DNA from: Candidatus Uhrbacteria bacterium
GTDB lineage: Bacteria; Patescibacteriota; Patescibacteriia; JACQRZ01
NCBI GenBank assembly: GCA_016206155.1
Contig: JACQSC010000010.1
Coordinates: 8,073 to 72,072 of the forward strand
DNA: 64,000 nt
Reading direction: 5' to 3'
Both the position numbers and the translations under genes were made by a program. Positions within the stretch are counted from its first letter, which is position 1. Each line of letters starts with the position of its first letter. The notes beneath the pieces were generated by a model. The model was not told the origin of the DNA. It ran no database searches and was given only the letters and a program-made list of their open reading frames with translations. Below are positions 3,034-60,461 of the stretch, piece by piece.

Positions 3034-3064
3034 AAACATCCGCATGATAGCGGATGTTTTTTGT
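3034..3064 (+). terminator. Rho-independent terminator after rpmA
   Basis: Hairpin aacatccgc-atgata-gcggatgtt followed by tttttgtt. Confidence 0.7.
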
Positions 3065-4341: not shown

Positions 4342-4353
4342 AGTTTTTTAGCA

Positions 4354-28779: not shown

Positions 28780-29898
28780 TTACTCTCGAATGGCGAGCCC
28801 GATTGCGACTGAAAACTTTGGGCCTATAGTTTCCAGTACGGCTTTAAGATCGGCGGGGTATTGGATATACGACCATGGATCGCCGATAAACACCCGCGCA
28901 TCAAGCGCGGACACAAAGTACTCCGCGATACCTGGCATCAATGCCGACCCCCCTGTCAGGATAATCTTTTCAATAGTGCCGCTTGCCTTTCCCGACGGAG
29001 TAAGGGAATGGCTCTTATACAGATCGAGCGTATAACGGACTTCGTGCACAATGGGCTCGAGAGCGGAACGGATAACATCGGGAATGCCGCCCGTGCCACT
29101 GGTATCTTGGCTTCCGGTGCGAATGCCGATATCCCGTTTCAGCTGTTCCGCGCGCTTTTCATTAATATGAAGACTGTTCACAATCGCCCGCGTGATACTC
29201 GACCCGCCTTGTTCCAGGCTTCGACCAAAAAAAGGAATACCGTTCTCCATGATAATGATATCGGTAACCGCCGATCCTATTTCCACGATCATGATCTCGC
29301 CGGGCTGGCTGCCGATAATAGACCGGGAAAGCGCAAACATTTCCGTTTCAAGTCCGGCGAGTTCAAGGCCGCTCAGTCCAAAAATCTCCGTATATTTCTC
29401 AACGGTTTCTTTTGCCGCGCCAGTAATCAGAATCTTGAGCTGAGGCTCTTCTTCCTCTGATGCGCTCTTTTTCCCAAACGGAAGCTTTAATCCTTTTTCG
29501 CCTTTTGCGGGCGCGTTCAGGATGCGATAATCAAGAACGATCTCGTCAAGTGGCAGTGGAATAATCTTTTTTGCCTCCCAGTGCACCGCGGAATCAAGTT
29601 CTTCGCCGGATAATTGGGGAAGGCTTATAAGGGATGTGAAGACCGCGTACGTTGGAAGCGCGGCAATGGCGCGTTTTGAACGGCATCGCGAGCGCTCGAC
29701 AACCGAACGGATGGCTTGACTCGTCAGCTTTGCGTCCTCGCGGCCGAGATTACGCAAATCGCGATGAAAATCCTCGACAAATCCATAGGTAAGCAGCGCG
29801 TGCCCCTCTTTTTTTCGATCGACTTCGATCACCTTGATGCTCGAGGTTCCGATATCGATACCGAGGATGGATGTTTCTTTTTTTTCAAATAATGGCAT
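28780..29898 (-). CDS. pilM: Type IV pilus assembly protein PilM (actin-like ATPase)
   Basis: ILGIDIGTSSIKVIEV phosphate-1 motif. The ATG start (MPLFEKKE) is at about 29898; the track gives a TTG start at 29916 inside the heptamer leader. Confidence 0.85.
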   Translation of the reverse strand: MPLFEKKETSILGIDIGTSSIKVIEVDRKKEGHALLTYGFVEDFHRDLRNLGREDAKLTSQAIRSVVERSRCRSKRAIAALPTYAVFTSLISLPQLSGEELDSAVHWEAKKIIPLPLDEIVLDYRILNAPAKGEKGLKLPFGKKSASEEEEPQLKILITGAAKETVEKYTEIFGLSGLELAGLETEMFALSRSIIGSQPGEIMIVEIGSAVTDIIIMENGIPFFGRSLEQGGSSITRAIVNSLHINEKRAEQLKRDIGIRTGSQDTSGTGGIPDVIRSALEPIVHEVRYTLDLYKSHSLTPSGKASGTIEKIILTGGSALMPGIAEYFVSALDARVFIGDPWSYIQYPADLKAVLETIGPKFSVAIGLAIRE

Positions 29899-29937
29899 AA
29901 CAATTTCAACTTTCAACTTTCAGATTAAAGTATAGCA
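29899..29937 (-). promoter_or_regulatory. pilM promoter (TGcTATACT) and heptamer leader (GAAAGTT)x2-GAAATTG
   Basis: Top caatttcaactttcaactttcagattaaagtatagca. No SD. Confidence 0.6.
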
Positions 29938-36913: not shown

Positions 36914-36992
36914 TACCTCCTTGACTGATACGTCTGTCATCCCGCCGGTGAAGCATGCCACGGACACCGATCCGGGGAACTGGATCCAGCCT

Positions 36993-38216
36993 ATGCGTGA
37001 TAAAACTTTCTTTTACTGGGTTTTGGCTTTCGCGGGAATGACAATGCTTCTTGTGTTTTTAGTTTCGCCGAACATGGTAGCCGCCGCCTCTGTCGGCTCC
37101 CCAAGCGTGTCTGGGGGCAGCGGTGTTATTCCTGAATTTTTTTTTCAAATCCCAATCGGGGGGCTGCGGTCAGTGATTGTCTGTGAAACCGGAAGCGACG
37201 GTAAACTGGCATGTCCCGGCATTGCAAAGTATGTCCAAGTCGTCTATCGCTTCCTGGTTGGGTTTGCTGCCGTGCTTGCGGTCCTTGCGCTCACCTGGGG
37301 CGGCGTGCGTTGGCTCATGTCGGGAGGGGACAGTAGCGCCATCCAGGAAGCAAAAAAAATCATGGGCAATGCCCTTATCGGCCTCCTTCTTGCGCTGGGG
37401 TCGTACGCGCTGCTTTTTACGCTTGGCAAACAATTTGTTGAGTATAAACCGATTAGCATACGGCGTATACAACTCATAATTCTCAACATTACGCCGACAA
37501 CGATATCGGCTGGCGGAACAAGCGCCACATACGATGTCAACAGGTTTGCCGCGTATGGGTTCCCTCCCCCAAATACAGAGCCGGATAAAAGCGGGAAAAA
37601 AATGGAAGGAGAGGCTTTGCGACGGTGGAACAAGTACAAGGATTTGGCAATGAAGGCATCAGTGGCAACGAGGACCGATATAGGATTTATCGGCATGTGG
37701 CCATTACTCGAAAATAGTTTTGATACATTTATGGATAACTGCGCCGACACTGACCACAATCCCAACACTCCCTGTGCATCGTGGGGTAGCAATTGGCAGG
37801 TCGGACTTGGAATTCATCCTGGAAATATGCCGTGGGCGTATGAAGACGGAGTTAGTGCAATGTATGGCAATACAAATGATGCTACTGTCCAGAACATTGG
37901 CCAGAGTGTTCTTGATACCGCAAAAGCCGCGGGAAGGCCACTCACGCTCGTCAGCGATCCGTTCCCAACAATCTCACTCAATAGCACGATCGATGCGGCA
38001 AAAAACGGCGATCAAAACGCTCGGCTTCTTATTGCAACACTTTCAAAAGATCCTGCTCTTGGTCTTTATCTTGTTGGCGCCCACTTTGGCTCAAAAGACG
38101 TTGGCAAAGAGCCAAAGAGTGAAATGGCGACAAGAATGAACAATTGGCCGCCTGCGGGTGCGTATACCCCCCAACGGATCAGTAATCTCATCAAGTCGAT
38201 CTATGACGCGAAATAG
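36993..38216 (+). CDS. VirB2/TrbC-like pilin-domain protein with a ~250-aa C-terminal extension (paralog 1)
   Basis: IAKYVQVVYRFLVGFAAVLAVLALTWGGVRWLMSGGDSSAIQEAKKIMGNALIGLLLALGSYALLF two-helix pilin core. The start was reset to MRDKTFFYW; the upstream part of the track ORF is encoded by a degenerate element A copy. Confidence 0.6.
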   Translation: MRDKTFFYWVLAFAGMTMLLVFLVSPNMVAAASVGSPSVSGGSGVIPEFFFQIPIGGLRSVIVCETGSDGKLACPGIAKYVQVVYRFLVGFAAVLAVLALTWGGVRWLMSGGDSSAIQEAKKIMGNALIGLLLALGSYALLFTLGKQFVEYKPISIRRIQLIILNITPTTISAGGTSATYDVNRFAAYGFPPPNTEPDKSGKKMEGEALRRWNKYKDLAMKASVATRTDIGFIGMWPLLENSFDTFMDNCADTDHNPNTPCASWGSNWQVGLGIHPGNMPWAYEDGVSAMYGNTNDATVQNIGQSVLDTAKAAGRPLTLVSDPFPTISLNSTIDAAKNGDQNARLLIATLSKDPALGLYLVGAHFGSKDVGKEPKSEMATRMNNWPPAGAYTPQRISNLIKSIYDAK

Positions 38217-39150: not shown

Positions 39151-39263
39151 AAAACGTATCCAGCCCAATTAAGGATTCTTGCGACGGAACAAAAAGCTTT
39201 GTGCCGTAGTAAAAAAATAGCATGGCAGCGCATGGGCGAGCCGGTGGTTTGGGTTTTAACACT

Positions 39264-39698
39264 ATGAAGAAAGCTCTCTTGTTCGTTTTTGCTCTCTCTC
39301 TATTTATCGCTACAACGTTCCTGTCTCCCGCTTCTGCAGGTGATGTTTCAGTTCAGCTTGAGATCCCTATTCCCGATATCGGTCAGTCACTTCCCGTCTG
39401 CACGACGAGGGAAACGAATCGTGCATGCGCCGGCATTGAGGAATACTTGTCCGCTATCTATCGCTGGCTTATTGGAATCACGGCAGTTCTTGCGGTGGTC
39501 GCGCTCACTTGGGGCGGAGTTCGCTGGTTGACATCGTCAGGAGACAAGGGTGTAATTCAAGATGCAAAAAAAGTCATAATCAATGCCGTTATCGGTATTC
39601 TTGTCGCGCTTAGCTCCTACTCACTTCTATGGGCAATTAACCCCAATCTCGCGCAGTTTGAGCCACTGAGAATAACACAATACGACCAAAAGCGCTGA
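39264..39698 (+). CDS. VirB2/TrbC-like pilin (short paralog 3)
   Basis: Signal peptide MKKALLFVFALSLFIA and the core IEEYLSAIYRWLIGITAVLAVVALTWGGVRWLTSSGDKGVIQDAKKVIINAVIGILVALSSYSLLW. Confidence 0.6.
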   Translation: MKKALLFVFALSLFIATTFLSPASAGDVSVQLEIPIPDIGQSLPVCTTRETNRACAGIEEYLSAIYRWLIGITAVLAVVALTWGGVRWLTSSGDKGVIQDAKKVIINAVIGILVALSSYSLLWAINPNLAQFEPLRITQYDQKR

Positions 39699-40002: not shown

Positions 40003-41829
40003 TCATGGTACCGGCATGAAATCAGAGAGCTTCAAAGGCTTTTTCGTATTGATGGATGGACAGCACTGTGGATCATCGGGAGCATGAATCACGGCCTCAA
40101 CTTCTACGACGCCATCCTCGACGGAAATATCTCTGACAACATCTCTATCATTGAACACATAATCGCCTGCATGCCGATACGTGCCGTCGACCATGGAAAG
40201 CATTGCTGCAAGATGAATGTAATATCCAGTGCCGCCATAATTCGCGCCAAGGACAGCGACCCCGTCTTGAATGCCATCATTATTAAGGTCGCCAAGAGCA
40301 CCATTCTCATAGCGGACATAATAAGGACCGTCATACGTATCATATGAATTTATTCTCTCGCGCTCGTCAGGAGTGAGCGCTGAATGAAATGAATGAAATC
40401 CATTGATGAGTTGTATCGGCTTATGATCAATAGTATAGAGTGCATTTTTCAGTGTTGACATCATGGCCTGTGAATTATCGCTGTTTGCGATATTCGCAAA
40501 AGACATGCCATATGCTCCCAATGCTCCACTTGTAAGAATACCCATGACCAAAAAGAAGAGTAACAATTTCCACCCATTCTGGTCAATCCCTTTGCGGTAA
40601 ACTTTCATAACAGCATCTCTGTATTGCGTATCGCCATTCTTATGATACGCCTCAACCGCTTCATCCCACGTTTTCCAATTGCGCTGATTATTCTTTACAT
40701 ATTGAGCCTTGTGAAATAACCATCGTACACCCCAGTGGATGCTATCTTTCGGCTCTTTTATTTCAATGGGTTGATCGAATGCCATGACAACGGATTTCCC
40801 CTGTTGATCATTCCATTCATTTTCCACAAATCCTTTTTCTGATTTCAGTACATGAATCGCGGGATTCCTAACATCACCAACCTGCATGATGTCGGGAAAA
40901 GGAGGATAATTCACTGCGTTTGCCCCATATCCAAGACGTGATTCTTGATAGGCTATTGCCTTAACAAGCGAGGGGTCAAGCGGCTCGGGCACCGGATTCT
41001 TTTTCTTTAAAAAATGCTCATTCCAGTAATGAACGACCTCTCCAATGATCGTATCATAGGCGTTATAATCCTGATTCGCCGGTCCCGGTCTATATGCATG
41101 AGGAGTGGCGAATGCGCCATTTACCACACATGTTATTTCTCGAATAAAGGGGGTGCCGTCCCCGTCAATATCAAATCGCCGCGGCTGCTGGCCGTCAGTA
41201 AATGAGCGGGTGAATGTTTTTGAGGAGCCTTTGAGTGTTTTTCCGCACAAATACCAATCACGATGAGCGCCCTTGTCGTTATTTCTTTCCGTGGCTCCAT
41301 CGATACGAAGACGAATATCGTCGTCATCGAAGCGCTTCTCTGCGTGCGCCGTCATAGTAAAAGAAGAAACACTAATCGTGTCTTTAACAACAAGCACCAG
41401 CCACGGAATACGATCACGATCGGGGGAACTCATTGATGGTATCGTCAGCTTTCCATCATCAATGTCATACAGTGCTAGCGATCCAACGGTTGGCGTTCCG
41501 TGCACAATCAATGAAAGCGAATGACTGCCTTTCGCAAGGGATACAAGAACGAAAAGAGTCAGCTCGTGTCCCTTTAATACATTCCCATTCCAAAAATCTC
41601 CCGCTAATAACCGTTGCTTTTTAGCGGATGGAACAATCTCGGCACCGTCAACGTGAATAGTAAGGCTGTCCTTTTTTGGCAACGAACGTCCGGTACGGGT
41701 ATTTTGCCACCAGCTTTTTGCGGACGCTTGCACAACAACACAATAGATGCCGTCGCGATCTATGATGAATTCCCGGTTGTATATGCTGGTAAATTCCTTG
41801 TTAAAGATCGTTTTACTTATCTGTTTCAT
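40003..41829 (-). CDS. Membrane protein with an SLT-like lytic transglycosylase domain (VirB1-like) and an N-terminal domain paralogous to the 22339-23175 protein
   Basis: AIAYQESRLGY...DIMQVGD...AVEAYHKNG (ES / GLMQ / AYNAG-like SLT motifs). TM LLLFFLVMGILTSGALGAYG. The track ORF extends antisense across radA; the start was reset to MKQISKTIF. Confidence 0.6.
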   Translation of the reverse strand: MKQISKTIFNKEFTSIYNREFIIDRDGIYCVVVQASAKSWWQNTRTGRSLPKKDSLTIHVDGAEIVPSAKKQRLLAGDFWNGNVLKGHELTLFVLVSLAKGSHSLSLIVHGTPTVGSLALYDIDDGKLTIPSMSSPDRDRIPWLVLVVKDTISVSSFTMTAHAEKRFDDDDIRLRIDGATERNNDKGAHRDWYLCGKTLKGSSKTFTRSFTDGQQPRRFDIDGDGTPFIREITCVVNGAFATPHAYRPGPANQDYNAYDTIIGEVVHYWNEHFLKKKNPVPEPLDPSLVKAIAYQESRLGYGANAVNYPPFPDIMQVGDVRNPAIHVLKSEKGFVENEWNDQQGKSVVMAFDQPIEIKEPKDSIHWGVRWLFHKAQYVKNNQRNWKTWDEAVEAYHKNGDTQYRDAVMKVYRKGIDQNGWKLLLFFLVMGILTSGALGAYGMSFANIANSDNSQAMMSTLKNALYTIDHKPIQLINGFHSFHSALTPDERERINSYDTYDGPYYVRYENGALGDLNNDGIQDGVAVLGANYGGTGYYIHLAAMLSMVDGTYRHAGDYVFNDRDVVRDISVEDGVVEVEAVIHAPDDPQCCPSINTKKPLKLSDFMPVP

Positions 41830-41880
41830 ACGTATGATCGATATGACCACAACGCCGATTGTAAAAATTTTGGTACCGCC

Positions 41881-41896
41881 ATATACTATTAGTATA
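41881..41896. promoter_or_regulatory. Palindromic bidirectional -10 element TATACTAtTAGTATA between the divergent SLT-protein gene and radA
   Basis: The perfect palindrome gives TATACT on both strands at a suitable distance from both start codons. Confidence 0.5.
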
Positions 41897-41918
41897 CCAT
41901 ATTTTAAGCAAAAAATCA

Positions 41919-43343
41919 ATGGCTCTTTCTGTCTATATCTGCTCGAATTGCGATGCGCAAAGCCCGAAATGGGCAGGGCGGTGCTTGGAGTGCGGATCGT
42001 GGGGAACGCTTGCGCAAGGAATCGCAGATGAAAAAACCAGCGGAAAAAAATCAACCGCAGGCATAGCGCCAGCAGACGCAATTCCCTTCTCGCAGATTTC
42101 AAACGAACATGTCCCGCGCCGCTCCACCGGCATTGCCGAAGTTGATCAAGTTTTGGGTGGCGGTATCGTTCCGGGAAGTTTGATTTTACTTGGCGGAGAG
42201 CCGGGGATTGGGAAGAGTACGATTTTAGGACAGCTTGCGTGCTCAATTTCACAACAAAAAAACTCCGTCATCTATTGCTCTGGGGAGGAGTCGGCCCAGC
42301 AAGTCAAAATGCGGTTTGACAGGATCAAAGCACTGGATCCCGGCCTGCGCCGGGATGACAAAGGGAGCGGGGCTGACACCCTCCTCTTCATCGGTGAAAC
42401 CAACTGCGAAAAAATCTGCGGTGCGCTTCGTCATCATAAACCGACGCTCGCAATCGTTGACTCCATACAAACTATCGCCTCTTCCGATATTCCTTCAGAA
42501 GCGGGAAGTATCGCGCAAGTACGCGCATGCACAGTCAAACTCCTTGAAGTCGCAAAGCAGGAAAACATCCCAATCATTATTACCGGCCATGTCACAAAAG
42601 AAGGCGGTGTTGCCGGTCCCAAAACTCTTGAACATCTTGTTGACACAGTCCTCTATCTTGAGGGGGATGCAAGCCAGTATTTTCGCCTATTGAAAACAGT
42701 AAAAAATCGCTTTGGCTCGACAAATGAGATTGGCGTCTTTGAAATGACTGGCGCAGGGTTAGTTGAAGTAAAAAATCCGTCAGAGCTTTTTCTCTCGTCA
42801 GAAAACGAACACGCGGCAGGCACTGCAACGACTGCGGTTGTAGAAGGATCGCGCGCGTTTCTCGTTCCCATTCAGGCGCTGACGAGCAAGACATATTTCG
42901 GCTACCCCCAACGAAAAAGCATCGGCATAGACGCCAATCGCCTCGGACTTCTTGTCGCGGTGCTTTCAAAACGTCTTGGGGTTAATCTTGGCGATCAGGA
43001 TATTCATGTCAACGTTGTCGGAGGCCTCAGAATATCCGAGCCTGCCGCAGACCTCGCGGTATGCGCAAGTATTCTCTCCTCGTACAAAGGGAAAATGGTG
43101 TCAGGTACCATTTTTGAAGAAATGGAACCAGACACCATTTTACCAGACACCATTTTGCCGACTATTTTCTTTGGCGAGGTTGGCCTCACAGGAGAAGTGC
43201 GTCCCGTAAGTCACACTGAGAAGCGACTCAAGGAAGCGGAGAAGCTCGGCTTCAAGACTGCGTATATTCCGAAGCAGTCAAAAAAAATCTCAACAAGCAT
43301 TCAGCTTGTTGAGATTAAAAACGTCCGCGAGTTGGAAATTTAA
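41919..43343 (+). CDS. radA: DNA repair protein RadA/Sms (carries two in-frame palindromic-element insertions)
   Basis: CxxC zinc ribbon, GEPGIGKST Walker A, KNRFG motif, Lon-like C-terminal domain. Extra segments ALDPGLRRDDKGSG and KMVSGTIFEEMEPDTILPDTILP. Confidence 0.9.
   Translation: MALSVYICSNCDAQSPKWAGRCLECGSWGTLAQGIADEKTSGKKSTAGIAPADAIPFSQISNEHVPRRSTGIAEVDQVLGGGIVPGSLILLGGEPGIGKSTILGQLACSISQQKNSVIYCSGEESAQQVKMRFDRIKALDPGLRRDDKGSGADTLLFIGETNCEKICGALRHHKPTLAIVDSIQTIASSDIPSEAGSIAQVRACTVKLLEVAKQENIPIIITGHVTKEGGVAGPKTLEHLVDTVLYLEGDASQYFRLLKTVKNRFGSTNEIGVFEMTGAGLVEVKNPSELFLSSENEHAAGTATTAVVEGSRAFLVPIQALTSKTYFGYPQRKSIGIDANRLGLLVAVLSKRLGVNLGDQDIHVNVVGGLRISEPAADLAVCASILSSYKGKMVSGTIFEEMEPDTILPDTILPTIFFGEVGLTGEVRPVSHTEKRLKEAEKLGFKTAYIPKQSKKISTSIQLVEIKNVRELEI
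42335..42366. repeat. Element A mini-hairpin inside radA (GGATCCCGGCC-tgc-GCCGGGATGACAAAG), in frame, encoding DPGLRRDDK
   Basis: 11-bp inverted repeat with a 3-nt loop inside the coding sequence. The same peptide and sequence recur in the 911-aa gene at about 58771-58812. Confidence 0.75.
43092..43160. repeat. Element B inside radA, in frame (aaatggtgtcaggtaccattt...ccagacaccatttt x2)
   Basis: Encodes KMVSGTIFEEMEPDTILPDTILP; contains the GAAATGGTGTC/GACACCATTT palindrome. Confidence 0.75.
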
Positions 43344-43363: not shown

Positions 43364-45505
43364 TTACTTCCTCAACAGCCCGCCCCACTCAACAAGCGTA
43401 AAGCCATTGCGAGGGATGCTGCTGAGAGCCTGAGGCCGCATCACAACGGGCTTATCAAGCCCATCGAAGTCCAAGAATATGCGAATCACTGTGTCTGGCT
43501 TTGGCGTTACGGAAAGCGGCGCAAGCGCGTTCATCTCGCGCGTGCCAAGCCAACTCAAGCGCGTGTACGGTGTCGTTGGCATCTTTGACAGCCAGAATTC
43601 CAAGAAATCGGCAGCTTCTTTTTCATTAAGCCCAAGCTGTGCAAGGTGTTCTCGCAACGTGCCTTCAAGCTGATCTTTTGCAACGACGAATCCTCGTGTG
43701 ATGGTCGGATACTGCTTTCCGGTCCCCTCCCAGAACAGCGATGAGTATGTCCCGCTCGCATGCTGCAACGTTCCATCGGGATACGCGCGAACCTGCCAGC
43801 CATTTCCGTACGCCGGCTCAGAGATGCGGATCTCCGCATCAACCGCCACCGATACATCTGTTGGCGTTGTCGGATAGAGGTAGATGACGGGCTTGCCGCA
43901 TTCGACGGCAGGACCGTACGTTGTGTTATTGTATACGACATAGCGATTGAGCGCGTCTTTCACCATAATCACGGGCCGCTTTGCCAGAAACTGTTCATAG
44001 CTTAACTTCTTGCTTTCCCCGTCTGCATAATATGCGCCGCCCGACATCTCGTACAGCGCCCGCTCAACGGAATTGGCTCCTGCCTTAAACGCGTATACGG
44101 TTTTGTTCCCTGCTCCGGTGCCAATCTTAGTGATGTTAGAAATCGAAGCATCACCAAGCACTGGCGTGAACGATCCGCCACCACACCCACCGGTTGCAAG
44201 TTCCTCATACCCGTCGGTATTTTTTATGCCATTATTCCACTTAATGCTGGGAACGCCATCATCACCCCCGAGCTCATTCTTGGTATAATCGTAAGAATAT
44301 TCAATGCCATTGGGCGCCTTTAAGACAAACGTCTGCACGCGCAATGGTTCGATTGATCCTGGCCCATCAACGGAATACAGCGTGCCGTTTGCCGTACTTG
44401 CAACCTGCGTACGCGTTGTCTTAAATTCAGGTTCTGCGTAGCGAGAATCGCCGCGGTTCAATGTAACTCCTTTATACGCAATCGTATCAGGCGCTTTAAT
44501 GGATGGATAGAAGGTCGTGGTGTTAATCCTCACGTTCCGGTCAACGACACCGCCAAACACCTTTCCGGTATCCTTATCATACACCTCGGAGTTGCGGGCA
44601 ATAAATTCATAGTTCCCGCCTGCATCCAAAAAGTACGCGTGGTAATCCTCGAACGAAGGTCCGTCCGGAGGAATCGCTGCAAGCAAAACATCGCGTCCGT
44701 TATCGCTGCCTGTTTTGTAATAGGTGACCTCCTCCCCGTTTGTTTGCAGGAAGAGGTGTGGCGGATTAGATAGTTTTTGTGGCGTGGAAAGCCATGTTAC
44801 TCCTGACTCCGGCGTTTGTGGAGCAGAAAATATTTGACCAGATGTTGAAAAATAGGGCGCATATGCTTGCGGGATGTTGCTGATATCTCGATTGGTAATG
44901 CCAAGCCCGAGTTCGCGCATGATGTTAAACGCATCCGACGGTCGGCCGAGAAAATAGCGCCTGCTATCTACTGGATTGACATACCATGCCTCACCGTTTC
45001 GTTGAGTCTGAAGCAAAATTTTCCCATGAAGGCGCCGAGTAAGGCTCGTATCTATTGGTAAAGCTCCCGATCCAAGCGGATCAAGATTTTCTTGAAGCTC
45101 AACGTCATCGCGATATCCGTCATAATCCGTGTCAGCGGCCTGTGGATTCATGCCAAGAGTTTCCTCCAGATTGTTTGGAACACCATCCATGTCAGAATCA
45201 TTAAAACGACCGCCACCCATGGTATCGCGTGCGACGCCAACAGGAATTTTGCGCAAATCCGAATTTGAAATGCCAAGACCCAAGCTGTTCATGAGCTCAA
45301 ACGCGTCAGATGGCCGACCCATATATATGCGGCTTCCGGTGTCGGGCCTGATATACCACGCTTCGCCAAGACTCTCAACCTGAAGAACGATTCTTCCCTT
45401 GAGACGATCGGTCAATGTCGCGGCACTTGCCGACAACACAAACGCGCCAAGAACAACCGCTCCGAGGGTTATCAGTCCCGTTCCTAACAAAAGACGATTT
45501 TTCAT
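43364..45505 (-). CDS. Secreted protein with 2 copies of a novel ~55-aa repeat, TSP3-like Asp-rich Ca-binding repeats and a large C-terminal domain of unknown function
   Basis: Signal peptide. Repeats LKGRIVLQVESLGEAWYIRPDTGSRIYMGRPSDAFELMNSLGLGISNSDLRKIP and LHGKILLQTQRNGEAWYVNPVDSRRYFLGRPSDAFNIMRELGLGITNRDISNIP. DSDMDGVPN...DTDYDGYRDD. Confidence 0.7.
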   Translation of the reverse strand: MKNRLLLGTGLITLGAVVLGAFVLSASAATLTDRLKGRIVLQVESLGEAWYIRPDTGSRIYMGRPSDAFELMNSLGLGISNSDLRKIPVGVARDTMGGGRFNDSDMDGVPNNLEETLGMNPQAADTDYDGYRDDVELQENLDPLGSGALPIDTSLTRRLHGKILLQTQRNGEAWYVNPVDSRRYFLGRPSDAFNIMRELGLGITNRDISNIPQAYAPYFSTSGQIFSAPQTPESGVTWLSTPQKLSNPPHLFLQTNGEEVTYYKTGSDNGRDVLLAAIPPDGPSFEDYHAYFLDAGGNYEFIARNSEVYDKDTGKVFGGVVDRNVRINTTTFYPSIKAPDTIAYKGVTLNRGDSRYAEPEFKTTRTQVASTANGTLYSVDGPGSIEPLRVQTFVLKAPNGIEYSYDYTKNELGGDDGVPSIKWNNGIKNTDGYEELATGGCGGGSFTPVLGDASISNITKIGTGAGNKTVYAFKAGANSVERALYEMSGGAYYADGESKKLSYEQFLAKRPVIMVKDALNRYVVYNNTTYGPAVECGKPVIYLYPTTPTDVSVAVDAEIRISEPAYGNGWQVRAYPDGTLQHASGTYSSLFWEGTGKQYPTITRGFVVAKDQLEGTLREHLAQLGLNEKEAADFLEFWLSKMPTTPYTRLSWLGTREMNALAPLSVTPKPDTVIRIFLDFDGLDKPVVMRPQALSSIPRNGFTLVEWGGLLRK

Positions 45506-45565
45506 AATTCTTAATTCTTAATTCTTAATTCTTAATTCTTAATTCTTAATTCTATTAGTATAGCA
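45506..45565 (-). promoter_or_regulatory. Promoter (TGcTATACT) and (AGAATTA)x7 heptamer leader ending at the ATG
   Basis: Top ttcttaattcttaattcttaattcttaattcttaattcttaattctattagtatagca. No SD. Confidence 0.7.
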
Positions 45566-45567
45566 CA

Positions 45568-47349
45568 CTATTGGGATGCGGGAAAGTAGAAAACTGTCCC
45601 GAACGGCGTGTCCTGCCGATATGCCGCTATCGCGGAGGTTATTGTATCAATAATTTTCTTCTTGGAATCACCCTTCAGTAGGCGAGGCTTGGCACGCACG
45701 GATTCGTGCCCAAGCACCATGAGCGATAATCCCTTGTCGGTAAATTCGCCGGCGGCAATCAGGCCTTGCTGAGTTTCCTTTGAAAATGTTTGATCAAAGA
45801 CAAAATTACCAAGAGAGTAGACAATGGGCTTTTCTTTATACACGCCAATATCTTGAACAACATGCGGGTGTGCGCCAATAACGGCGTCAGCGCCAGCGTC
45901 AATCCACTGCTTTGCGAGCTGTTCTTGCTCTGGTGAGTGTTTCGGTTGATATTCGACACCCCAATGGGGAAACACAATGACTCGACTCGTGTCATCTTTC
46001 TTTAATTCCCGAATGGCGTCAATGACCGGCTGTTGTTTGGGATGCGACAGCACATTCACGCCGATAACAGTAAGCCGTAATCCCTGTCCTTGAAATGTGC
46101 AGACAGTCTGCTGGCTCACTTCTCGCGGATCGCCGATCGGACAGATGCTCTGTTTGCGCAGAAGTGTGCGGGTTGTCTCAAGGCCGTTTGCACCCTGATT
46201 TAAGGTATGATTGTTTGCCAAACTTACTGCTCGAAGCTTGAGAAAGCGGAGCGCGGACATACTTTGAGGAGGGAAATTAAATGACAAATTGTTTGGTTTT
46301 GGATTTGATCGCAGGATAGCAGCACTGATGGGCCCCTCCAGATTTGCTACCGGCGCATCAACGCCCCAGAAAACACGATTGCCAAAATCAGAAAAAAGTT
46401 TACGAAAAGAATCCTTCTCATACCAATAGCCGACAGCACGCCCAAGCATGATATCACCGGCAAACGCAAACGAAACCGACGGCTCCGGCACGACCGGCTC
46501 GCCCTCTTCGTACCAACCGAATACATGAGACGTACTCTCGGCGTCAGGATTACCAATAATAACACCGCTGTTAGTGTGATCAAATACGACAAAACGTTTC
46601 GTGTCGTGCCTATTCGCCCACGTTGCAAGAAATGACAGAACCGCGGGCGCGTCAACCTCCGCTTTTTGCATCAGCAATGAGCTGTCGCGATTCACAAGCG
46701 CGCGCAATGTCAACCGATCGTGAAGATCGGCAAGCGCAGCGGGTTGATAATGGGAAAAATCAACCGAGGCGACAACAAAACACGCGGGGCAGCGCCCATT
46801 GAGCGCATCAGCAAGCGCCGTAACTTCTTCTTGCGATGTTTCCATCTTGACGATGATTGGAACAATGCGCGCGTCCGGAAATGTTTGCTTTATATCACGA
46901 ACAATAAGGTAAATGCTGTGCTCGCCGTTGAAACTTCCTGGTTCATCGCGAACCGTTTTGTTGCTTGCAAGTGCGTCAATGACGCCGCCATCGGCCTCAA
47001 GCATGCCAACACTGGTGTTCCACGAGCGACGTGTTGTCTGAATGTTGGCAATCCCACGCTCAAAATGATTGGGGCCGATAAGGATGATTGTCTCCGGCTT
47101 CTCTACCTCGGCAAACCGCTCCCCAACAACCCGAAACATCTCCGTGCGCCGCTGTCCAACTATTTCATGATGCGGTACAACCAGAGCAGAAATACGCGAC
47201 GCAAAAGATGGCTGCACCGCCGTAGCGCGACTGGATTCGACTTGCGCTGGTGACGGCGGGACCCCAACATCAACGACTAACCCACCAGCAACACCCGCCG
47301 GTATCACGGTGCAGAGAAACACCATCTTCAGGACGGAGTGTATACGCAT
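45568..47349 (-). CDS. Secreted fusion protein: N-terminal Memo/AmmeMemoRadiSam-B-like domain plus C-terminal CapA (PGA-synthesis metallophosphatase) domain
   Basis: VPHH...GPNH...SVDFSHY (Memo-like), then GDIMLGR...ANNH...GAHPHV...GNFVFDQTF (CapA). Confidence 0.7.
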   Translation of the reverse strand: MRIHSVLKMVFLCTVIPAGVAGGLVVDVGVPPSPAQVESSRATAVQPSFASRISALVVPHHEIVGQRRTEMFRVVGERFAEVEKPETIILIGPNHFERGIANIQTTRRSWNTSVGMLEADGGVIDALASNKTVRDEPGSFNGEHSIYLIVRDIKQTFPDARIVPIIVKMETSQEEVTALADALNGRCPACFVVASVDFSHYQPAALADLHDRLTLRALVNRDSSLLMQKAEVDAPAVLSFLATWANRHDTKRFVVFDHTNSGVIIGNPDAESTSHVFGWYEEGEPVVPEPSVSFAFAGDIMLGRAVGYWYEKDSFRKLFSDFGNRVFWGVDAPVANLEGPISAAILRSNPKPNNLSFNFPPQSMSALRFLKLRAVSLANNHTLNQGANGLETTRTLLRKQSICPIGDPREVSQQTVCTFQGQGLRLTVIGVNVLSHPKQQPVIDAIRELKKDDTSRVIVFPHWGVEYQPKHSPEQEQLAKQWIDAGADAVIGAHPHVVQDIGVYKEKPIVYSLGNFVFDQTFSKETQQGLIAAGEFTDKGLSLMVLGHESVRAKPRLLKGDSKKKIIDTITSAIAAYRQDTPFGTVFYFPASQ

Positions 47350-47369
47350 AGAGAAGGACGTATCCTGTT

Positions 47370-49238
47370 TTACGGATTGCGGATAATGCCCATGAACAGC
47401 GGTTCGCCTGTCTGATTATCGCGAATCGCAAAGAAGAATGGCCTGTTTACCTCCATATAAAATGTCTTTTTCACCGGTCCGACTGATGTGATTCCCACGC
47501 CGCCGACACCCGTTACCGCGGCGGCTTCGGTTCCTTCTTCATTGACGTCAACGTATGTTTTATGCTTGACTTCACTTATTTTAAGACTCCTGCCAATGCC
47601 GGTGAAATCGGCGCTATTTTCAAATGCAATGCCCATACCAAGTTTTGTCAGCAACGGTATCAATCTCTTCTCATATTCCATTTTGAACTTTGGAAGCAAG
47701 AGCGTACCCTCTGTTTCTTTGTATTGTTTCATCCAGCCGGTCCAGGTATCGGCATTCAGCGACTGCACAAAGGCATCGAGATTTTTTGGCAAAAACACAA
47801 CCATGCTCAATCGTTTGTTTTTTCCATACGGCAGTTGCACGCTTTGAAAATCCTCGGTTTCAAAATACGGCATGTCGTCTCGACGCATCATAAGCGGGTG
47901 TTTTTTTGAGGCGCCGCTGGCGGACGTAAATGCCCTCTCTTCTGTTAATTGCTTGTTAAATTCAGTAGTCCAGCTCCCCTTAAAATACACCGCGTTGATA
48001 AGATACATTACCATGTCATCCGGGATCGGTGGAGATACTATGCTCGATATTTTCCCTTTTGTATTTTTGTTCACCCACGCATTGATTGTGTTCGCCGCAT
48101 TCGAGTTTGAAAAATCAAGCGTTGAAATCTCGGCGTTAAAATAGTGTTTGACAACGTCAAGAAATTCCCTCCGAAACTCAATACCCTTCTTCGCCCAAAC
48201 GGAATTGGCAACTGATAATTCAACTTTTTGATCGGGATTTTTAAGAGCGTCAATGAGTTCGCGGCTCTTGCTGTTAATGGTATTGATATCAAAGCCTCGA
48301 AATGATAATGCGTTTTGCATCGCGTTATATGTTCCTCCCTTCGCGCCGTTATACACCATTGACAAAGCCAGCGCGATGCTTGATGGCGAAATAAATATGT
48401 TGTCTTGCTCCTCTTTGGCAAGAAATTTCAACGTCTCTATGCCAAATGCTGTGTGAGCATCTGTAATGTTTGCAACGATGGGCGCTTGAGTGATCGGCGT
48501 CGTTTGACTGTCAGCGCCAATGGAGGCAAGGTCTGCGTTTGATATCCCGAGACCAAGCGCGCGCATCACGGAAAAAGCATCTGCTGGACGGCCGAGGAAA
48601 TAACGTTTTTCGCTTTTTGGATCAACATACCACGCCCCTCCCTTCTGCTCGACCTGAATAAGGATCCTGCCGGCCATCTTTTTTGTAAACGCTTGATCAA
48701 TAGGCATCTTGCCCTGACCAAAGGGATCATAACTGTTCAAAATCTCGGTAATATCGTCATACCCGTCCCTGTCACTGTCTTCTGTCAGCTTCATCCCGAC
48801 AAGCTTCTCGAGTACCTGTTCATAGCATGTTGCGTAGGAATCTGGCGAGCCACTGTCGAGAAGCGCGTTTGTACAGGGTTCCAGCTGTTTCATGATCGAA
48901 TTGTAAACCTGCTCGCTGGTTGCATCCGTCGTCATAAGGGTGACAAGTTCGGGCGTAAGGATACCGATTGGAATTTTGCGAATATCCGCGTTTGTAATAC
49001 CAACACCCCGTTCGCGCATCACCAGAAATGCGTCTGCGGGCCGGCCGAGATTTGCGCGAGTGCCGGTATCCGGACGCACATACCACGCCTCTCCTTTGCT
49101 TTCAACTTGAAGAAGAATTCTTCCTTTGAGTTTTTCGGACAAGCTCAAAGCGCCATTGGCGATGGACACAACACCTCCAAGCGCAAGAATCATGCCAAGG
49201 CTTATCCCAGCGATCGCAAAAGTCGGCATCTTTTTCAT
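47370..49238 (-). CDS. Secreted fusion protein: 3 copies of the novel ~55-aa repeat, a TSP3-like segment and a C-terminal serpin domain
   Basis: Repeats LKGRILLQVESKGEAWYVRPDTGTRANLGRPADAFLVMRERGVGITNADIRKIP etc. Serpin core ISPSSIALALSMVYNGAKGGT...INAVYFKGSW...FYMEVNRPFFFAIRD...PLFMGIIRNP. Confidence 0.8.
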   Translation of the reverse strand: MKKMPTFAIAGISLGMILALGGVVSIANGALSLSEKLKGRILLQVESKGEAWYVRPDTGTRANLGRPADAFLVMRERGVGITNADIRKIPIGILTPELVTLMTTDATSEQVYNSIMKQLEPCTNALLDSGSPDSYATCYEQVLEKLVGMKLTEDSDRDGYDDITEILNSYDPFGQGKMPIDQAFTKKMAGRILIQVEQKGGAWYVDPKSEKRYFLGRPADAFSVMRALGLGISNADLASIGADSQTTPITQAPIVANITDAHTAFGIETLKFLAKEEQDNIFISPSSIALALSMVYNGAKGGTYNAMQNALSFRGFDINTINSKSRELIDALKNPDQKVELSVANSVWAKKGIEFRREFLDVVKHYFNAEISTLDFSNSNAANTINAWVNKNTKGKISSIVSPPIPDDMVMYLINAVYFKGSWTTEFNKQLTEERAFTSASGASKKHPLMMRRDDMPYFETEDFQSVQLPYGKNKRLSMVVFLPKNLDAFVQSLNADTWTGWMKQYKETEGTLLLPKFKMEYEKRLIPLLTKLGMGIAFENSADFTGIGRSLKISEVKHKTYVDVNEEGTEAAAVTGVGGVGITSVGPVKKTFYMEVNRPFFFAIRDNQTGEPLFMGIIRNP

Positions 49239-49297: not shown

Positions 49298-51421
49298 CTA
49301 CTCGATATGCACGGTATCCTGGAATGTGGCGATTCGGTTTTTAAGTTCCGGGTGATCATTGAGCTTGGAATGATATGCCGCTGCATATTCTCGCGCTTTT
49401 ATAATCAACTCGATATCGGTAAGCGTCGCGATTTTCAAGCGCGGCATTCCTGATTGGCGCAGTCCCAAGATATCACCTTCTCCGCGCAATGCTAAATCTT
49501 TCTCTGCCAGCGCAAAGCCGTCATGTGACGATACAACGGCTTTGAGACGGCTGATTTCTTCTTTGTCCTCGTCGGTTGGTGCAAGAAAGCAGTACGACTG
49601 ATGGTCTGCCCGCCCGACTCGCCCGCGCAATTGATGCAAGCTCGCAAGCCCGAACCGCTCCGCGCCCTCGATGAAGACGATCGTCGCATTTGGCACATCG
49701 ATGCCAACCTCGACAACTGACGTTGTAACTAATATATCAATCTCATGGTCTCGAAATGCGGCCATCACCCGTTCTTTCTCCGCGGTTTTTATTCGGCCAT
49801 GGAGCATTTCGACTCTTTCGTGTCGAAACGGTCCATCGATTAATTTTTTATACTCTTCCTTTACCGACCGCACACCCAATATATCAGATTGATCAATGAT
49901 CGGACAGACAATAAATGCCTGGCGCCCTCGCCTCACGTGTTTTCGGATAAAATCGTATGTCCACGCGCGATAGGACTGCGGCACAATTTTTGTGATAATT
50001 TTTTTTCGCCCCTTTGGCAATGCGCGAATCGTGGAAATATCAAGGTCACCATACACCGTGAGCGCCAAGCTCCTCGGAATTGGCGTTGCCGTCATTGACA
50101 GGACGTGCGCAGTGATTGGCGCACTGTTTTTTTCTCTCAAGGCTTTCCGTTGATTGACGCCAAAGCGATGCTGCTCGTCTACAATCACAAACGCGAGGTT
50201 CTTGAATGAAATTTTTTCTTGAATCAACGCATGTGTCCCGATAACGATATCAACACCTCCATTTGCTATCGTATCTCGTAACTCGTAATCCTTGATTCTT
50301 AATTCTTGATTCTTAATTCTTAATTCGTGATGCTGTGCTGTGAAAAGCGCAATGCGAACATCAAAATCCGCAAACACCTTTTTTAATGTAGTGAAATGCT
50401 GCCGTGCAAGCACCTCCGTCGGCGCCATGAACGCGCACTGGTATCCTGCGTGCACAACGTTAAGCATTGCGAGGATAGCAACGATTGTCTTACCGGATCC
50501 GACATCACCCTGAAGAAGGCGATTCATTGGCGTCGCTTTCTGGATATCACAGAGAATCTCCCATGCAACGGTCTTCTGCTCTTTTGTCAACGTAAACGGA
50601 AGCGCCGCAATGAGCCGCTTCGTTATTTTTTGATCAAACGGTATGGCACATGAAGTCTGGGCGGCTAGCGATTCCTTGAGATTCTTGCAATAAAGTTGAA
50701 GTAAAAAAAGCTCCTCAAACTTAAAGCGCTGTTCGGCGATACAATATTCCTCCTGTTTTTCCGGAAAATGAATTGATAAAAGAGCGGTCGAAAGATCGGG
50801 ATATCGCTCGTGCGCGCGGATATCATCTGGAAGCCACTCTTTGACAAAGGGAAGACATCGATCAAGCGCCGTACGCATGAGGAGGCGAAATTGCTTTTGC
50901 GCAACGTTTGCGGGAAACGAATAGACGGGCACGAGCCGCGCCGTGTGAAGCGATGGAAATACGGTGTCAGGTATCCTGACCCCGTTTTCTGCGCCTGACC
51001 CCGTTTTCTCATATACGGGACTCACCATCTGGAGATCATAATAATGATCGCTCGTTTTTCCCGAAAGACTCAACCAGTCCCCGACTTGCAGGTTTTTTGT
51101 AAGAAAAGGTTGATTGAACCATACGATCTTGATGCTCCCGCTTGCGTCCGAAACCAATGCTTCGGTGACGATCATCCGCGAACGTCGAGAGCGGCGATTG
51201 GCGATCATATCGATCCGCCCCCGAATTGTTGCTGTTATCTGGGTGCGCAGGTCTGCGATTGGAAGCACGAGGGAAAAATCGTCAAATCGTCGCGGAAAAT
51301 AAAAAATGAGATCCTCGCAGGTCTCAATACCAAGTGGCTTTAGTTTTTTTTCCAATGCCTTTCCTGTTCGGCCTAAGCTCGCGAGAGGTTGCGCAAGAGG
51401 ATTCATAAGTTGATTCACCAT
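49298..51421 (-). CDS. recG: ATP-dependent DNA helicase RecG (carries in-frame repeat insertions)
   Basis: Wedge domain, GDVGSGKT Walker A, DEQHRFG and the TRG-like C-terminus. Insertions HELRIKNQELRIKDYELRD and KTGSGAENGVRIPDTV. Confidence 0.9.
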   Translation of the reverse strand: MVNQLMNPLAQPLASLGRTGKALEKKLKPLGIETCEDLIFYFPRRFDDFSLVLPIADLRTQITATIRGRIDMIANRRSRRSRMIVTEALVSDASGSIKIVWFNQPFLTKNLQVGDWLSLSGKTSDHYYDLQMVSPVYEKTGSGAENGVRIPDTVFPSLHTARLVPVYSFPANVAQKQFRLLMRTALDRCLPFVKEWLPDDIRAHERYPDLSTALLSIHFPEKQEEYCIAEQRFKFEELFLLQLYCKNLKESLAAQTSCAIPFDQKITKRLIAALPFTLTKEQKTVAWEILCDIQKATPMNRLLQGDVGSGKTIVAILAMLNVVHAGYQCAFMAPTEVLARQHFTTLKKVFADFDVRIALFTAQHHELRIKNQELRIKDYELRDTIANGGVDIVIGTHALIQEKISFKNLAFVIVDEQHRFGVNQRKALREKNSAPITAHVLSMTATPIPRSLALTVYGDLDISTIRALPKGRKKIITKIVPQSYRAWTYDFIRKHVRRGRQAFIVCPIIDQSDILGVRSVKEEYKKLIDGPFRHERVEMLHGRIKTAEKERVMAAFRDHEIDILVTTSVVEVGIDVPNATIVFIEGAERFGLASLHQLRGRVGRADHQSYCFLAPTDEDKEEISRLKAVVSSHDGFALAEKDLALRGEGDILGLRQSGMPRLKIATLTDIELIIKAREYAAAYHSKLNDHPELKNRIATFQDTVHIE
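50281..50330. repeat. Heptamer array (cgtaatc/cttgatt/cttaatt units) inside recG, in frame, encoding ELRIKNQELRIKDYELRD
   Basis: Top actcgtaatccttgattcttaattcttgattcttaattcttaattcgtga. Confidence 0.75.
50961..51012. repeat. Element C (CCTGACCCCGTTTTCT x2 with a GGTGTCAGG palindrome arm) inside recG, in frame
   Basis: ggtgtcaggtatcctgaccccgttttctgcgcctgaccccgttttctc encodes KTGSGAENGVRIPDTV. Confidence 0.7.
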
Positions 51422-51425
51422 TCAT

Positions 51426-51497
51426 TGCACTCGCGAGGAATCGAACCTCGATTACGGGATCCGCAATCCCGTGTCCTATCCGTTGAACGACGAGTGC
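51426..51497 (-). tRNA. tRNA-Arg with a GCG anticodon
   Basis: GCACTCG-TC-GTTC...GGAC-A-CGGGA-TTGCGGA-TCCCG-TAAT-CGAGG-TTCGATT-CCTCG-CGAGTGC-A. The anticodon stem is perfect, and loop positions 34-36 read GCG. Confidence 0.7.
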
Positions 51498-54021: not shown

Positions 54022-55896
54022 CTAGGCTTGGTGTTTCTTTTCAAGCTCGAACTCTTTCTTCGCCGCTTCGATCTCAAGTAATTGGCGCGGATCGGTCGTA
54101 ATCAGCTGATCCTCCGAGTAGGACGCAATCACTTTAATCGCAACGTGTTTGGTTCCCGCGAAAAAAATGCCCTCTCCCGGACCTCCTTCTAATAATAGAT
54201 ACTTCTCACCCTCTGTCAACAAGAATGTCTTCTGTACAACATCGATGGCCGCGGGCGATTGCTTGAGCAGGAGCTGAAGAGCGGAGTTCGTGAGAATCGC
54301 GCGTCCATATTCCGATGTCAAAAAGTCGTTCACGTCCTGCGTGATGGTGGATACCCCGAGATAGTACTTGCGGGCGCGCTTGACCAGCGCGAAGATAAAG
54401 CGCGCGGAGTCCTCGTGCTGCATCAGCCACCATGCCTCATCAATGACCAATATGCGACGCTTCACCTCCGAACGCACGACATTCCAGATGTAATTGACGA
54501 CCGTATAAATCGCAATGGGTCGAAGCTCGTCCTCAAGATCACGCACCGAAAAAACAACCAATTGATTTCGCGTCTCCACGTTTGTCTGATGGTTGAGGAG
54601 CCCTGCAAACGTCCCTTCGGTGTATTTCCGCAGTTTATTCGAAAGCCCTGCTCCTCCTTCCATACCCTCGAGAATATCCTGGAGGTCGGAAAGCGTCGGG
54701 GGCTGGATGCCTGCGGAGAGGTCGGCTTGCGGAGTAATATCTCGCTTGGCATATGCCTCAAGCAAGGCGCGATCCATGATGGAATCCTCCTCTTGCGTAA
54801 ACTCTCCAAGCATCAGGCGCGTGAGCCCTTTGAGCGTAATAACAGCGCTGCGAATAATATCGGCAACCGACGCTTGTTCCCCTACTGCCCGCGGCAGATC
54901 AAAGGGATTGATGCGGCTGGTTGAGGAAAGTGAGATGTTAATATAGGTGCCACCGACGGCATCGGAAAGGTGCTTGTACTCCCGCTCCGGATCAATAACC
55001 AGCACATCAGTCCCCATCATCATGGAGCGTAGAATTTCTAACTTAACGGCGAACGACTTACCGGCGCCGCTCGTTGCGAACACGGTGAGGTTCGCATTCT
55101 GGAGGCTGAACCGATCAAAGAGAATCAAGCTGTTGTTATGCCGATTAATCCCGTAGAGAATCCCATTGTCAGATGTGAGATCAGATGAGATAAATGGAAA
55201 GGCCGCCGCGGCCGGCGAGGTGTTCATGTTAAATGGAATAGCAAGCTCATCGTTGCAAAGCGGCAGGGTTGAATTGTATCCCTGCTCCGCTTGATACAGC
55301 ACGCGTTTGGTAAAAATCAGCTTCGATCCATAGAGTGATTCGATGTCCTCCGTCATCTTGTCGAGTTGCTCAAGCGTATCGGCATAGAGTGTTGTGTAAA
55401 CACCGATGGAAAAAAAGTGCTCAATGCCTTGCGTCAGGTCATCGCGCAATTGCTCCATATCGCGCAGCGCCGTCTCCGCTTGCGGATCGCGGGGCTTGCC
55501 GCGCTCCTGCCCGGAAGAAATCTCCGCCTCAACGCGCCCCACTTTATCGCGCAATTGTTTTAAAACAATGGGCGTCGGCAAAGGTGCAAAAAAGAGCCCG
55601 ACATCAAAAGACGCAGCATAGTTGATAATCGGAGAAAACCATCCGACATTGATATATCGCGGATAGCCGACGACAAAAAGCGTTCTGCAATACTTCGACC
55701 CAACACGGACATAGTTGGGCTGCACCTCAAACGCGGACGGGGCAATCAGATCCTTGACCGCGACCAAACCGCGCCGATACGCTAATTCCTCTTCAAGAAC
55801 GGCTTTTTGCGCCGCTTCTTTCTGCGCAGTTGGTGTGATGGGCTTTTTTTCGTGCTCCTCCTTTTTAGCTTTAATGGGTTTAAATGGCATAAACAT
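54022..55896 (-). CDS. VirB4/TrbE-like type IV secretion ATPase
   Basis: FATSGAGKSF Walker A, ILVIDEAWWL Walker B, VirB4 C-terminal domain architecture. Confidence 0.85.
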   Translation of the reverse strand: MFMPFKPIKAKKEEHEKKPITPTAQKEAAQKAVLEEELAYRRGLVAVKDLIAPSAFEVQPNYVRVGSKYCRTLFVVGYPRYINVGWFSPIINYAASFDVGLFFAPLPTPIVLKQLRDKVGRVEAEISSGQERGKPRDPQAETALRDMEQLRDDLTQGIEHFFSIGVYTTLYADTLEQLDKMTEDIESLYGSKLIFTKRVLYQAEQGYNSTLPLCNDELAIPFNMNTSPAAAAFPFISSDLTSDNGILYGINRHNNSLILFDRFSLQNANLTVFATSGAGKSFAVKLEILRSMMMGTDVLVIDPEREYKHLSDAVGGTYINISLSSTSRINPFDLPRAVGEQASVADIIRSAVITLKGLTRLMLGEFTQEEDSIMDRALLEAYAKRDITPQADLSAGIQPPTLSDLQDILEGMEGGAGLSNKLRKYTEGTFAGLLNHQTNVETRNQLVVFSVRDLEDELRPIAIYTVVNYIWNVVRSEVKRRILVIDEAWWLMQHEDSARFIFALVKRARKYYLGVSTITQDVNDFLTSEYGRAILTNSALQLLLKQSPAAIDVVQKTFLLTEGEKYLLLEGGPGEGIFFAGTKHVAIKVIASYSEDQLITTDPRQLLEIEAAKKEFELEKKHQA

Positions 55897-60431: not shown

Positions 60432-60461
60432 ACTAGTAAAGCACCATCTCTCTTAAGGATT

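Follow-up and report, generated by a model that had tools for sequence, protein, structure and literature searches.

Patescibacteria account for a large share of bacterial diversity, and to our knowledge almost nothing is known of how their cell surface is organised or how they interact with their hosts. In a 64,000-nucleotide (nt) stretch of a Candidatus Uhrbacteria genome (contig JACQSC010000010.1, positions 8,073 to 72,072; "the window" below means this whole stretch) two minus-strand genes, here called A and C, encode products that start alike and end differently: in both a signal peptide is followed by a module built of two repeats, which precedes a serpin in C and a domain of 500 amino acids (aa) in A. 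The locus raises the question of what this module does for two unrelated passengers. The answer to which we give about an even chance is that the module acts as a portable device by which secreted passengers would be retained non-covalently at the cell surface. An initial annotation, made from the sequence alone, had noticed the repeat and the serpin. Its coordinates for the open reading frames (ORFs) of A and C on the minus strand proved exact, and its assignment of the DNA to a Patescibacteria-like genome is supported by the closest homologues, which are named Uhrbacteria or 'Patescibacteria group'. The two genes and the parts of their modules are listed here, with the independent E-values (i-E) of the repeat hidden Markov model (HMM) and with a slash at the putative cleavage positions:

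43364-45505, minus strand: gene A, 713 aa, defined by ORF and homologues; signal peptide, two-repeat module and a 500-aa Patescibacteria-wide domain
45422-45505, minus strand: signal peptide of A (aa 1-28, ..LSASA/ATL; hydrophobic window aa 4-32), with the AXA directly before repeat 1
45236-45421, minus strand: repeat 1 of A (repeat HMM i-E 9.5e-37)
45053-45235, minus strand: inter-repeat linker of A, with two DxDxDGxxDxxE motifs located by regular expression (aa 103-114 and 125-136; nt 45164-45199 and 45098-45133)
44867-45052, minus strand: repeat 2 of A (repeat HMM i-E 1.3e-37)
47370-49238, minus strand: gene C, 622 aa, defined by ORF; signal peptide, two-repeat module and serpin
49152-49238, minus strand: signal peptide of C (aa 1-29, ..VSIANG/ALS; hydrophobic window aa 4-34)
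48963-49145, minus strand: repeat 1 of C (repeat HMM i-E 6.2e-37), beginning immediately behind the signal peptide
48699-48962, minus strand: inter-repeat linker of C, 88 aa, with a Cys-containing insertion and a single DxDxDG motif, DSDRDGYDDITE (aa 154-165, nt 48744-48779)
48510-48698, minus strand: repeat 2 of C (repeat HMM i-E 3.3e-37)

When a profile built from the four window copies was run on the six-frame translation of the whole window, each of the four copies was recovered at an i-E of about 1e-37, and no further match was found in the 64 kb. The repeat, as the initial annotation had claimed, is real and at these values well above chance, but its unit is of ~60 and not 55 aa, and exactly two copies are present per protein, not '2 or 3'. 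The Asp-rich DxDxDG segments had been placed after the repeats; in both A and C they actually sit between the two copies. The order of the module is repeat, thrombospondin type 3 (TSP3)-like linker, repeat, and its length is ~180 aa in all. The signal peptides proposed for both proteins were borne out by N-terminal hydrophobic segments ending in ..SASA/ATL and ..IANG/ALS. In the linker of A the two DxDxDG motifs are spaced 22 aa, and the 88-aa linker of C is atypical when compared with the family median of 55 aa (242 module proteins). The four copies are mutually just 48-64% identical, from which it follows that the A and C modules are not recent copies, and a recent A/C duplication was ruled out on this ground. 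The description of the linkers as TSP3-like held with regard to the DxDxDGxxDxxE motif, but no match to PF18884 (TSP3_bac) was obtained for A or C at E<=1. Among homologues PF18884 matched at the linker position in 16 of 112 module proteins, and NCBIfam gave weak matches to TSP3-bearing proteins at aa 101-143 of A.

It had also been stated that the repeat could not be placed in a known family, and this was upheld by every library searched. Neither Pfam-A nor NCBIfam contained a family for the repeat, whether A and C or eight diverse isolated repeats (E<=10) were used; a sequence search of the PDB with the repeat profile returned nothing better than ribosomal L30, without significance (E about 0.5), and comparison of the module model with PDB folds gave no informative match. 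LysM, SLH, SH3b, PG_binding_1, CW_binding_1/2, SPOR and PASTA did not match A or C (E<=1) or the eight diverse repeats (E<=10). The repeat family is thus unnamed, absent from the domain libraries searched and without a relative of solved structure, and the literature searched contained no account of the module or of serpins in Patescibacteria. The AlphaFold2 model of the module of A had a mean predicted local distance difference test score (pLDDT) of 87 and a predicted template modelling score (pTM) of 0.75; each repeat is predicted to consist of a short helix, then a meander of three strands, then another helix, and the linker was the most confident part (pLDDT 94-97). Judging from its DxDxDG motifs, the linker probably lends the module stabilisation by calcium.

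The repeat is not peculiar to this gene cluster. It turned out to be a portable module occurring throughout the phylum: the four-copy profile, run against 1.84 billion cluster representatives (50% identity), found the module in 3,616 of them (E<=1e-3), 2,426 of which also passed E<=1e-30; with few exceptions these proteins have two matched stretches. With protein A as the query more than 1,786 proteins were found, almost all of which matched just the N-terminal 25-30% of A, and exactly two copies were present in all 120 of the 120 best matches to A. Module identity across proteins with unrelated passengers was 47-64%, with 28 invariant columns. Among species-representative genomes at least 557 module stretches were confirmed, and the named lineages were mostly Uhr-, Falkow-, Buchanan- and Doudnabacteria, Parcubacteria and 'Patescibacteria group'. 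The titles of 22 loci (L003, L006, L009, L010, L018, L026 and 16 others, from binchicken/SRP co-assemblies) read 'uncultured Gammaproteobacteria bacterium'; we treated these titles as unreliable, and they look like placeholders or mislabels. Several genomes gave more than one locus, and some loci consist of two or three tandem module genes. At L034 (3459-5760, Falkowbacteria UBA11705) six repeat copies of the same orientation lie within about 2.3 kb and so probably belong to two or three neighbouring module genes, and four copies each were found in L002, L003 and L060; this points to local expansion of paralogues at the four loci.

The position of the module and the company it keeps were examined in larger samples. 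In 201 of the 242 module proteins it stood directly behind an N-terminal hydrophobic segment, in 28 at the extreme C-terminus and in 13 elsewhere. Signs of another anchor were rare: LPXTG was found in the last 60 residues of none of the 242, and a second transmembrane (TM)-like segment in just 10. The partners identified in 112 representatives were CAP (12), Trypsin_2 and Trypsin (3+3), NAGPA (3) and, further, YHYH, fn3, CARDB, SNase, Kazal, Peptidase_M23, PG_binding_1 and SH3_3; most partner regions had no Pfam domain, and short proteins of 165-255 aa consisting of little more than the module also occur. The Kazal-type protease-inhibitor domain was fused to the module in one of the 112 proteins (alignment A5), which means that the serpin is not the sole class of inhibitor with this address.

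Of two scans of the viral database IMG/VR, one gave no match and the other three loci, each with a single repeat behind a signal peptide. On these phage-like contigs the repeat is followed by a poly-Pro spacer and Trypsin_2 (L083, 5903-6940) or by a small beta-rich domain (L084 and L085, the latter at 5920-6549). The genes lie near integrase and tail-fibre-like genes, and those of L083 and L085 have neither the TSP3 linker nor the second copy, so the repeat can exist alone. L083 also encodes, at 3928-4890 on the minus strand, a putative cysteine peptidase with a weak match to a PHROG 'peptidase', whose last ~65 aa read KLKGKYILRAEGAGEVYKV...GISESDF. This tail was considered as a divergent repeat in an endolysin-like layout and rejected, the match being insignificant (2.9 bits).

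The key indication of what the module does came from homologues of the two passengers that lack it. For this comparison 118 module-less serpin homologues and 118 module-less homologues of the C-terminal domain of A were used, and the N-termini of about 20 of the serpins were read. The module-less serpins, which are up to 74% identical to that of C, had an N-terminal hydrophobic segment in 110 of the 118 cases. The N-termini read have the form MNQKGFANIIILIV...GGYFVLNRQ, i.e. a hydrophobic helix without an AXA-type site and then a Pro/Thr-rich spacer; in the 40 residues past the hydrophobic segment P, T, S, Q, A, E and N make up 61% on average. The other family showed the same picture: a TM-like N-terminal helix in 107 of 118, a spacer of the same composition (62%) and, in the members read, a P/T/Q-rich spacer running into the conserved 'GVTWL' start of the domain. 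In A, C, P0002, P0003 and P0240 the hydrophobic helix and spacer are replaced by a signal peptide and the module. A group of Patescibacteria/Uhrbacteria serpins without the module (P0241-P0261 and others) is 65-74% identical to C over the serpin domain and has the same framework of the reactive-centre loop (RCL; ..TFYMEVNRPF); these proteins are 400-450 aa long, and their hydrophobic helix (MNQKGFANI..) and ensuing Pro/Thr-rich spacer stand where C has signal peptide and module. In front of two unrelated passengers the anchor and spacer have thus been swapped for a signal peptide and the module, which is most simply read as a functional equivalence of the two devices; the module would then keep its passenger at the surface.

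As a separate observation, the N-termini of P0241-P0261 share MNQKGFANI(I/V)ILI, which resembles a prepilin-type (class III) K-G/F signal without the Glu at +5. These proteins might be processed by prepilin peptidase and not be plain signal anchors.

The passenger of C was compared with serpins of known structure. Its features are:

47373-48458, minus strand: serpin domain, aa 261-622 (PF00079, E=2.8e-112, profile positions 2-370 of 370)
47466-47540, minus strand: hinge and RCL, aa 567-591, EEGTEAAAVTGVGGVGITSVGPVKK, located by alignment with miropin and comparison of 120 homologues

The claim of a full serpin with an intact inhibitory-type hinge and RCL was well founded: PF00079 was matched over nearly its full length, and both EEGTEAAAV and NRPFFFAIRD are present. 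The protein matched 196 PDB serpins, the best solved relative being miropin of Tannerella forsythia (5ncs, E=5e-66). In inhibitory serpins the hinge has the P17-P9 consensus ExGTEAAAA, with small uncharged residues at P12-P9 (PMC8233489), and the hinge of C, EEGTEAAAV (aa 567-575), agrees with it. The loop consists of 25 residues and is followed by TFYMEV-NRPF, in agreement with the layout of an exposed RCL, in which the scissile bond comes about 16-17 residues past the hinge Glu and s1C and NxPF follow; among the 120 homologues the RCL framework is constant and the centre of the loop variable. In the HMMER alignment loop positions 15-18 (VGIT; Val581-Gly582-Ile583-Thr584) match Val367-Lys368-Thr369-Ser370 of miropin, a lipoprotein of the T. 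forsythia surface that has three adjacent reactive bonds in this Val-Lys-Thr-Ser stretch (bioRxiv 10.1101/2025.09.05.674453). Since Val-Gly-Ile-Thr offers no basic P1 residue, a different range of proteases is expected for C. By analogy with miropin we predict a small or aliphatic P1 (Gly582 or Ile583) and hence elastase- or subtilisin-like rather than trypsin-like targets. A Lys-Lys pair is located 7-8 residues C-terminal to the canonical RCL site, which is too far downstream and disfavours trypsin-like targets; the same argument was made for the Ser373-Thr bond of miropin (bioRxiv 10.1101/2025.09.05.674453). Full-length fusions of the module to a serpin were found just in P0239 (identical) and P0240 (71% identical), and about 100 serpin homologues closer than 50% are 400-450 aa long. 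The serpin of C is an ordinary, intact, miropin-like bacterial serpin with an acquired module address.

The likeness to miropin extends to the hinge (EEGTEAAAVT), to an RCL extended on the P' side and, if the proposed surface display of C is correct, to display on the bacterial surface. The two differ in how they would get there: miropin has a lipid anchor in the outer membrane of a diderm, whereas C has a signal peptide and the two-repeat module before the serpin. The N-terminus of C, MKKMPTFAIAGISLGMILALGGVVSIANGALS, contains no Cys and thus no lipobox, so the principle of anchoring differs.

These observations can be combined into the mechanism that we infer for surface retention. Sec export and signal-peptide cleavage would release the protein from the membrane, and the module would then hold the passenger at the cell surface non-covalently by binding a conserved component of the cell's own envelope, for which peptidoglycan, a wall polymer and the surface layer (S-layer) are candidates. 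It would thereby do the job that the N-terminal membrane-anchor helix and Pro/Thr-rich spacer do in most homologues of both passengers. In the case of C, the passenger would be an inhibitory serpin of the miropin-like group with an extended RCL, covalently trapping serine proteases of the elastase or subtilisin type on their arrival at the surface. The high conservation of the module across lineages is more easily squared with a conserved ligand of the bacterium's own than with a host ligand, which would diversify. Genes for MraY, a MurA-type enzyme and MurB are present in the window, which indicates that the organism makes peptidoglycan and renders this polymer a candidate ligand. The initial annotation had called the serpin 'surface-targeted', which as stated was unsupported; the idea is plausible, and comparative support for it now comes from the replacement of TM anchor and spacer by the module in both families.

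Several points weigh against this reading. The module has neither sequence nor fold likeness to a known wall-binding module, its role being read only from architecture and the logic of substitution, and it shares no fold with any solved wall-binding or surface-anchoring member. No recurrent neighbour gene that could provide a scaffold or synthesise a ligand was found in 80 loci, non-module families being common to at most six of them; the examples of shared neighbours that were read look like housekeeping genes. A phage lysin using the module as its wall-binding domain, which would have spoken directly for binding to the wall, was found in neither of the IMG/VR scans. If the signal peptides stayed uncleaved, A and C would be left anchored in the membrane, and the swap argument would be weakened. 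With regard to the serpin, the P1 call comes from register counting and one alignment with miropin, in a loop 5-6 residues longer than that of alpha-1-antitrypsin.

The same distribution could be explained if the module recognised another surface. It could serve as an adhesin or direct its passengers to the surface of host cells, by which means an episymbiont delivers enzymes and inhibitors onto a bacterial host; its partners include plausible attack enzymes (trypsin-like peptidases, SNase, Peptidase_M23, NAGPA), module proteins have no other anchor, so that action at a distance is possible, and Patescibacteria are widely inferred to be episymbionts (PMC13059738). We consider this unlikely, because host-recognition domains usually diversify and the module is conserved at 47-64% across lineages with presumably different hosts, and because its standing in for a self-membrane anchor in two families suggests that self-association has been kept. 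Alternatively, the module could be a calcium-dependent, dockerin-like unit that docks onto a common protein scaffold, an S-layer protein or a pilus. The resemblance is real in several respects: the DxDxDGxxDxxE motifs are those of PF18884 TSP3 and dockerin loops, a typical linker has two of them 22 aa apart in a duplicated architecture, the module is found at either terminus of many enzymes as dockerins are, the model is most confident in the linker, and genes for type IV pili and T4SS pilins are also present in the window. However, the motifs merely form the hinge between two larger repeats; the conserved bulk is these two ~60-aa repeats and not the loops, of which C keeps one only, and A and C stay below the Pfam threshold for TSP3. 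The Pfam dockerin profile matched neither A, C nor the isolated repeats, only the 22-aa loop spacing being dockerin-like, and none of the 80 loci revealed a recurrent 'cohesin-like' neighbour. To docking of this kind we therefore give little credence. A function unconnected with any address, the module being a spacer, a pro-domain or an aid to folding or solubility and mobile only by chance, appears quite improbable. It would fit a fold without informative match and the existence of module-only-like proteins of 165-255 aa, but a spacer would not be expected to keep, at both termini and in over 3,600 clusters, a fixed two-copy layout in which many surface-type residues (W, Y, R, D, N) are invariant, and pro-domains are normally specific for their enzyme while more than 20 unrelated passengers carry the module.

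A different issue is whom the serpin serves. The initial annotation had suggested that it could inhibit host proteases; the sequence shows no preference for these over environmental or self proteases. The serpin could regulate the bacterium's own trypsin-like surface proteases, tethered by the same module and encoded elsewhere in such genomes: the module is also fused to Trypsin_2/Trypsin in several family members and, in another, to a Kazal inhibitor, and protease and inhibitor could share an address. We regard this as doubtful, taking into account that the 64-kb window contains no S1 protease gene (the sole serine peptidase seen was an S41 enzyme at 3064-4341), that the predicted P1 (Gly/Ile/Val) is unsuited to trypsin-type specificity, and that miropin, the closest characterised relative, acts on foreign proteases (bioRxiv 10.1101/2025.09.05.674453). 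A more far-reaching possibility, which we put forward tentatively, is that repeat-TSP3-repeat constitutes a Patescibacteria-specific address tag of new fold, through which dozens of enzymes and inhibitors per lineage would dock in a calcium-dependent manner onto one envelope receptor or host contact zone. If this were true, proteases, nuclease, CAP and serpin/Kazal inhibitors would share one address, and the module would define an extracellular 'toolkit' of the episymbiont, which could then be catalogued throughout the phylum by sequence.

If the module is a surface-retention device, as we favour, it looks like an undescribed family in a seemingly familiar role. SLH, LysM, CWB2, SH3b and choline-binding repeats are likewise small repeated units found at either terminus of varied secreted enzymes that have no other anchor, and the likeness to these non-covalent anchoring modules of monoderms is one of logic only. 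An unnamed module in thousands of secreted Patescibacteria proteins would offer a practical handle on the surface of these bacteria. Their surface and secreted proteome could be searched with it, proteins to be displayed or localised in these largely uncultured organisms might be tagged with it, and it presents a structural target. The exchange of anchor for module in two unrelated families provides a concrete, testable hypothesis on its role. Few bacterial serpins have a plausible ecological function, and the fusion in C would add to them a protease inhibitor tethered to the surface.

The other passenger, the C-terminal part of A (43367-44866, minus strand), is a domain of 500 aa with the invariant motifs ECGKPVIYLYP, GGCG, FWEG and EWGG. 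It had been described as a 450-aa domain of unknown function. The domain is indeed without a curated family or a known fold, Pfam-A and NCBIfam giving no match for the C-terminal 500 aa, but it is longer than thought and belongs to a large family of Patescibacteria proteins (over 2,132 matches), whose typical members are 550-600 aa long and contain no Pfam domain.

A and C are separated by gene B and preceded by RecG. The remaining features of the array are:

51426-51497, minus strand: tRNA-Arg(GCG), lying just 5 bp ahead of the RecG start (51421) and heading the RecG-C-B-A array
49298-51421, minus strand: RecG, first gene of the array
45568-47349, minus strand: gene B, 593 aa, defined by ORF; hydrophobic N-terminus and a Memo + PGA_cap/CapA-like fusion
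46663-47187, minus strand: Memo domain of B, aa 55-229 (PF01875, E=1e-18, 68 bits, cut-off 27)
45790-46470, minus strand: PGA_cap domain of B, aa 294-520 (PF09587, E=2.9e-52, 178 bits, cut-off 27)
43286-43316, minus strand: hairpin with a 13-bp stem and a T-run, found by terminator scan directly 3' of A

The intergenic gaps between RecG, C, B and A are 59, 20 and 62 bp. The short gaps, the common strand and the hairpin with T-run after A suggest that the four genes form a single co-directional array, of which the hairpin is likely to be the end; three of its products, those of C, B and A, would be extracytoplasmic. The Memo-CapA fusion reported between A and C was confirmed, both domains of B being above the curated Pfam thresholds in one polypeptide; B also matched TIGR04336 in NCBIfam (E=3e-26, 92 bits, cut-off 26). 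A link to poly-gamma-glutamate capsule through PGA_cap was considered and rejected, as a scan of window ORFs turned up neither CapB nor CapC. In related organisms one Logan contig (L001) carries RecG, the serpin fusion and then Memo/PGA_cap, and another (L002) Memo/PGA_cap, an extra 364-aa module protein, a homologue of A and then RadA, an order which shows that the cluster is kept among close relatives while the number of its module genes varies.

Other genes of the window include two ORFs matching T4SS_pilin (PF18895), a TraG/VirB4-like P-loop ATPase and, after it, two ORFs (911 and 736 aa) without a Pfam domain; this set, at 36921-38216, 39222-39698, 54022-55896 and 57696-62672, may represent type IV secretion or conjugation-like genes flanking the cluster. 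A 749-aa ORF at 40003-42252 (minus strand) gave a sub-threshold match to the SLT lytic transglycosylase domain; its 5' end overlaps RadA (41919-43343, plus strand), so that its true start is probably an internal Met. A type IV pilus assembly ATPase (T2SSE + MshEN) and PilM are encoded at 25423-27156 and 28780-29916 (minus strand), and beside these pilus genes lies an ORF of 827 aa (29944-32427) without a Pfam domain.

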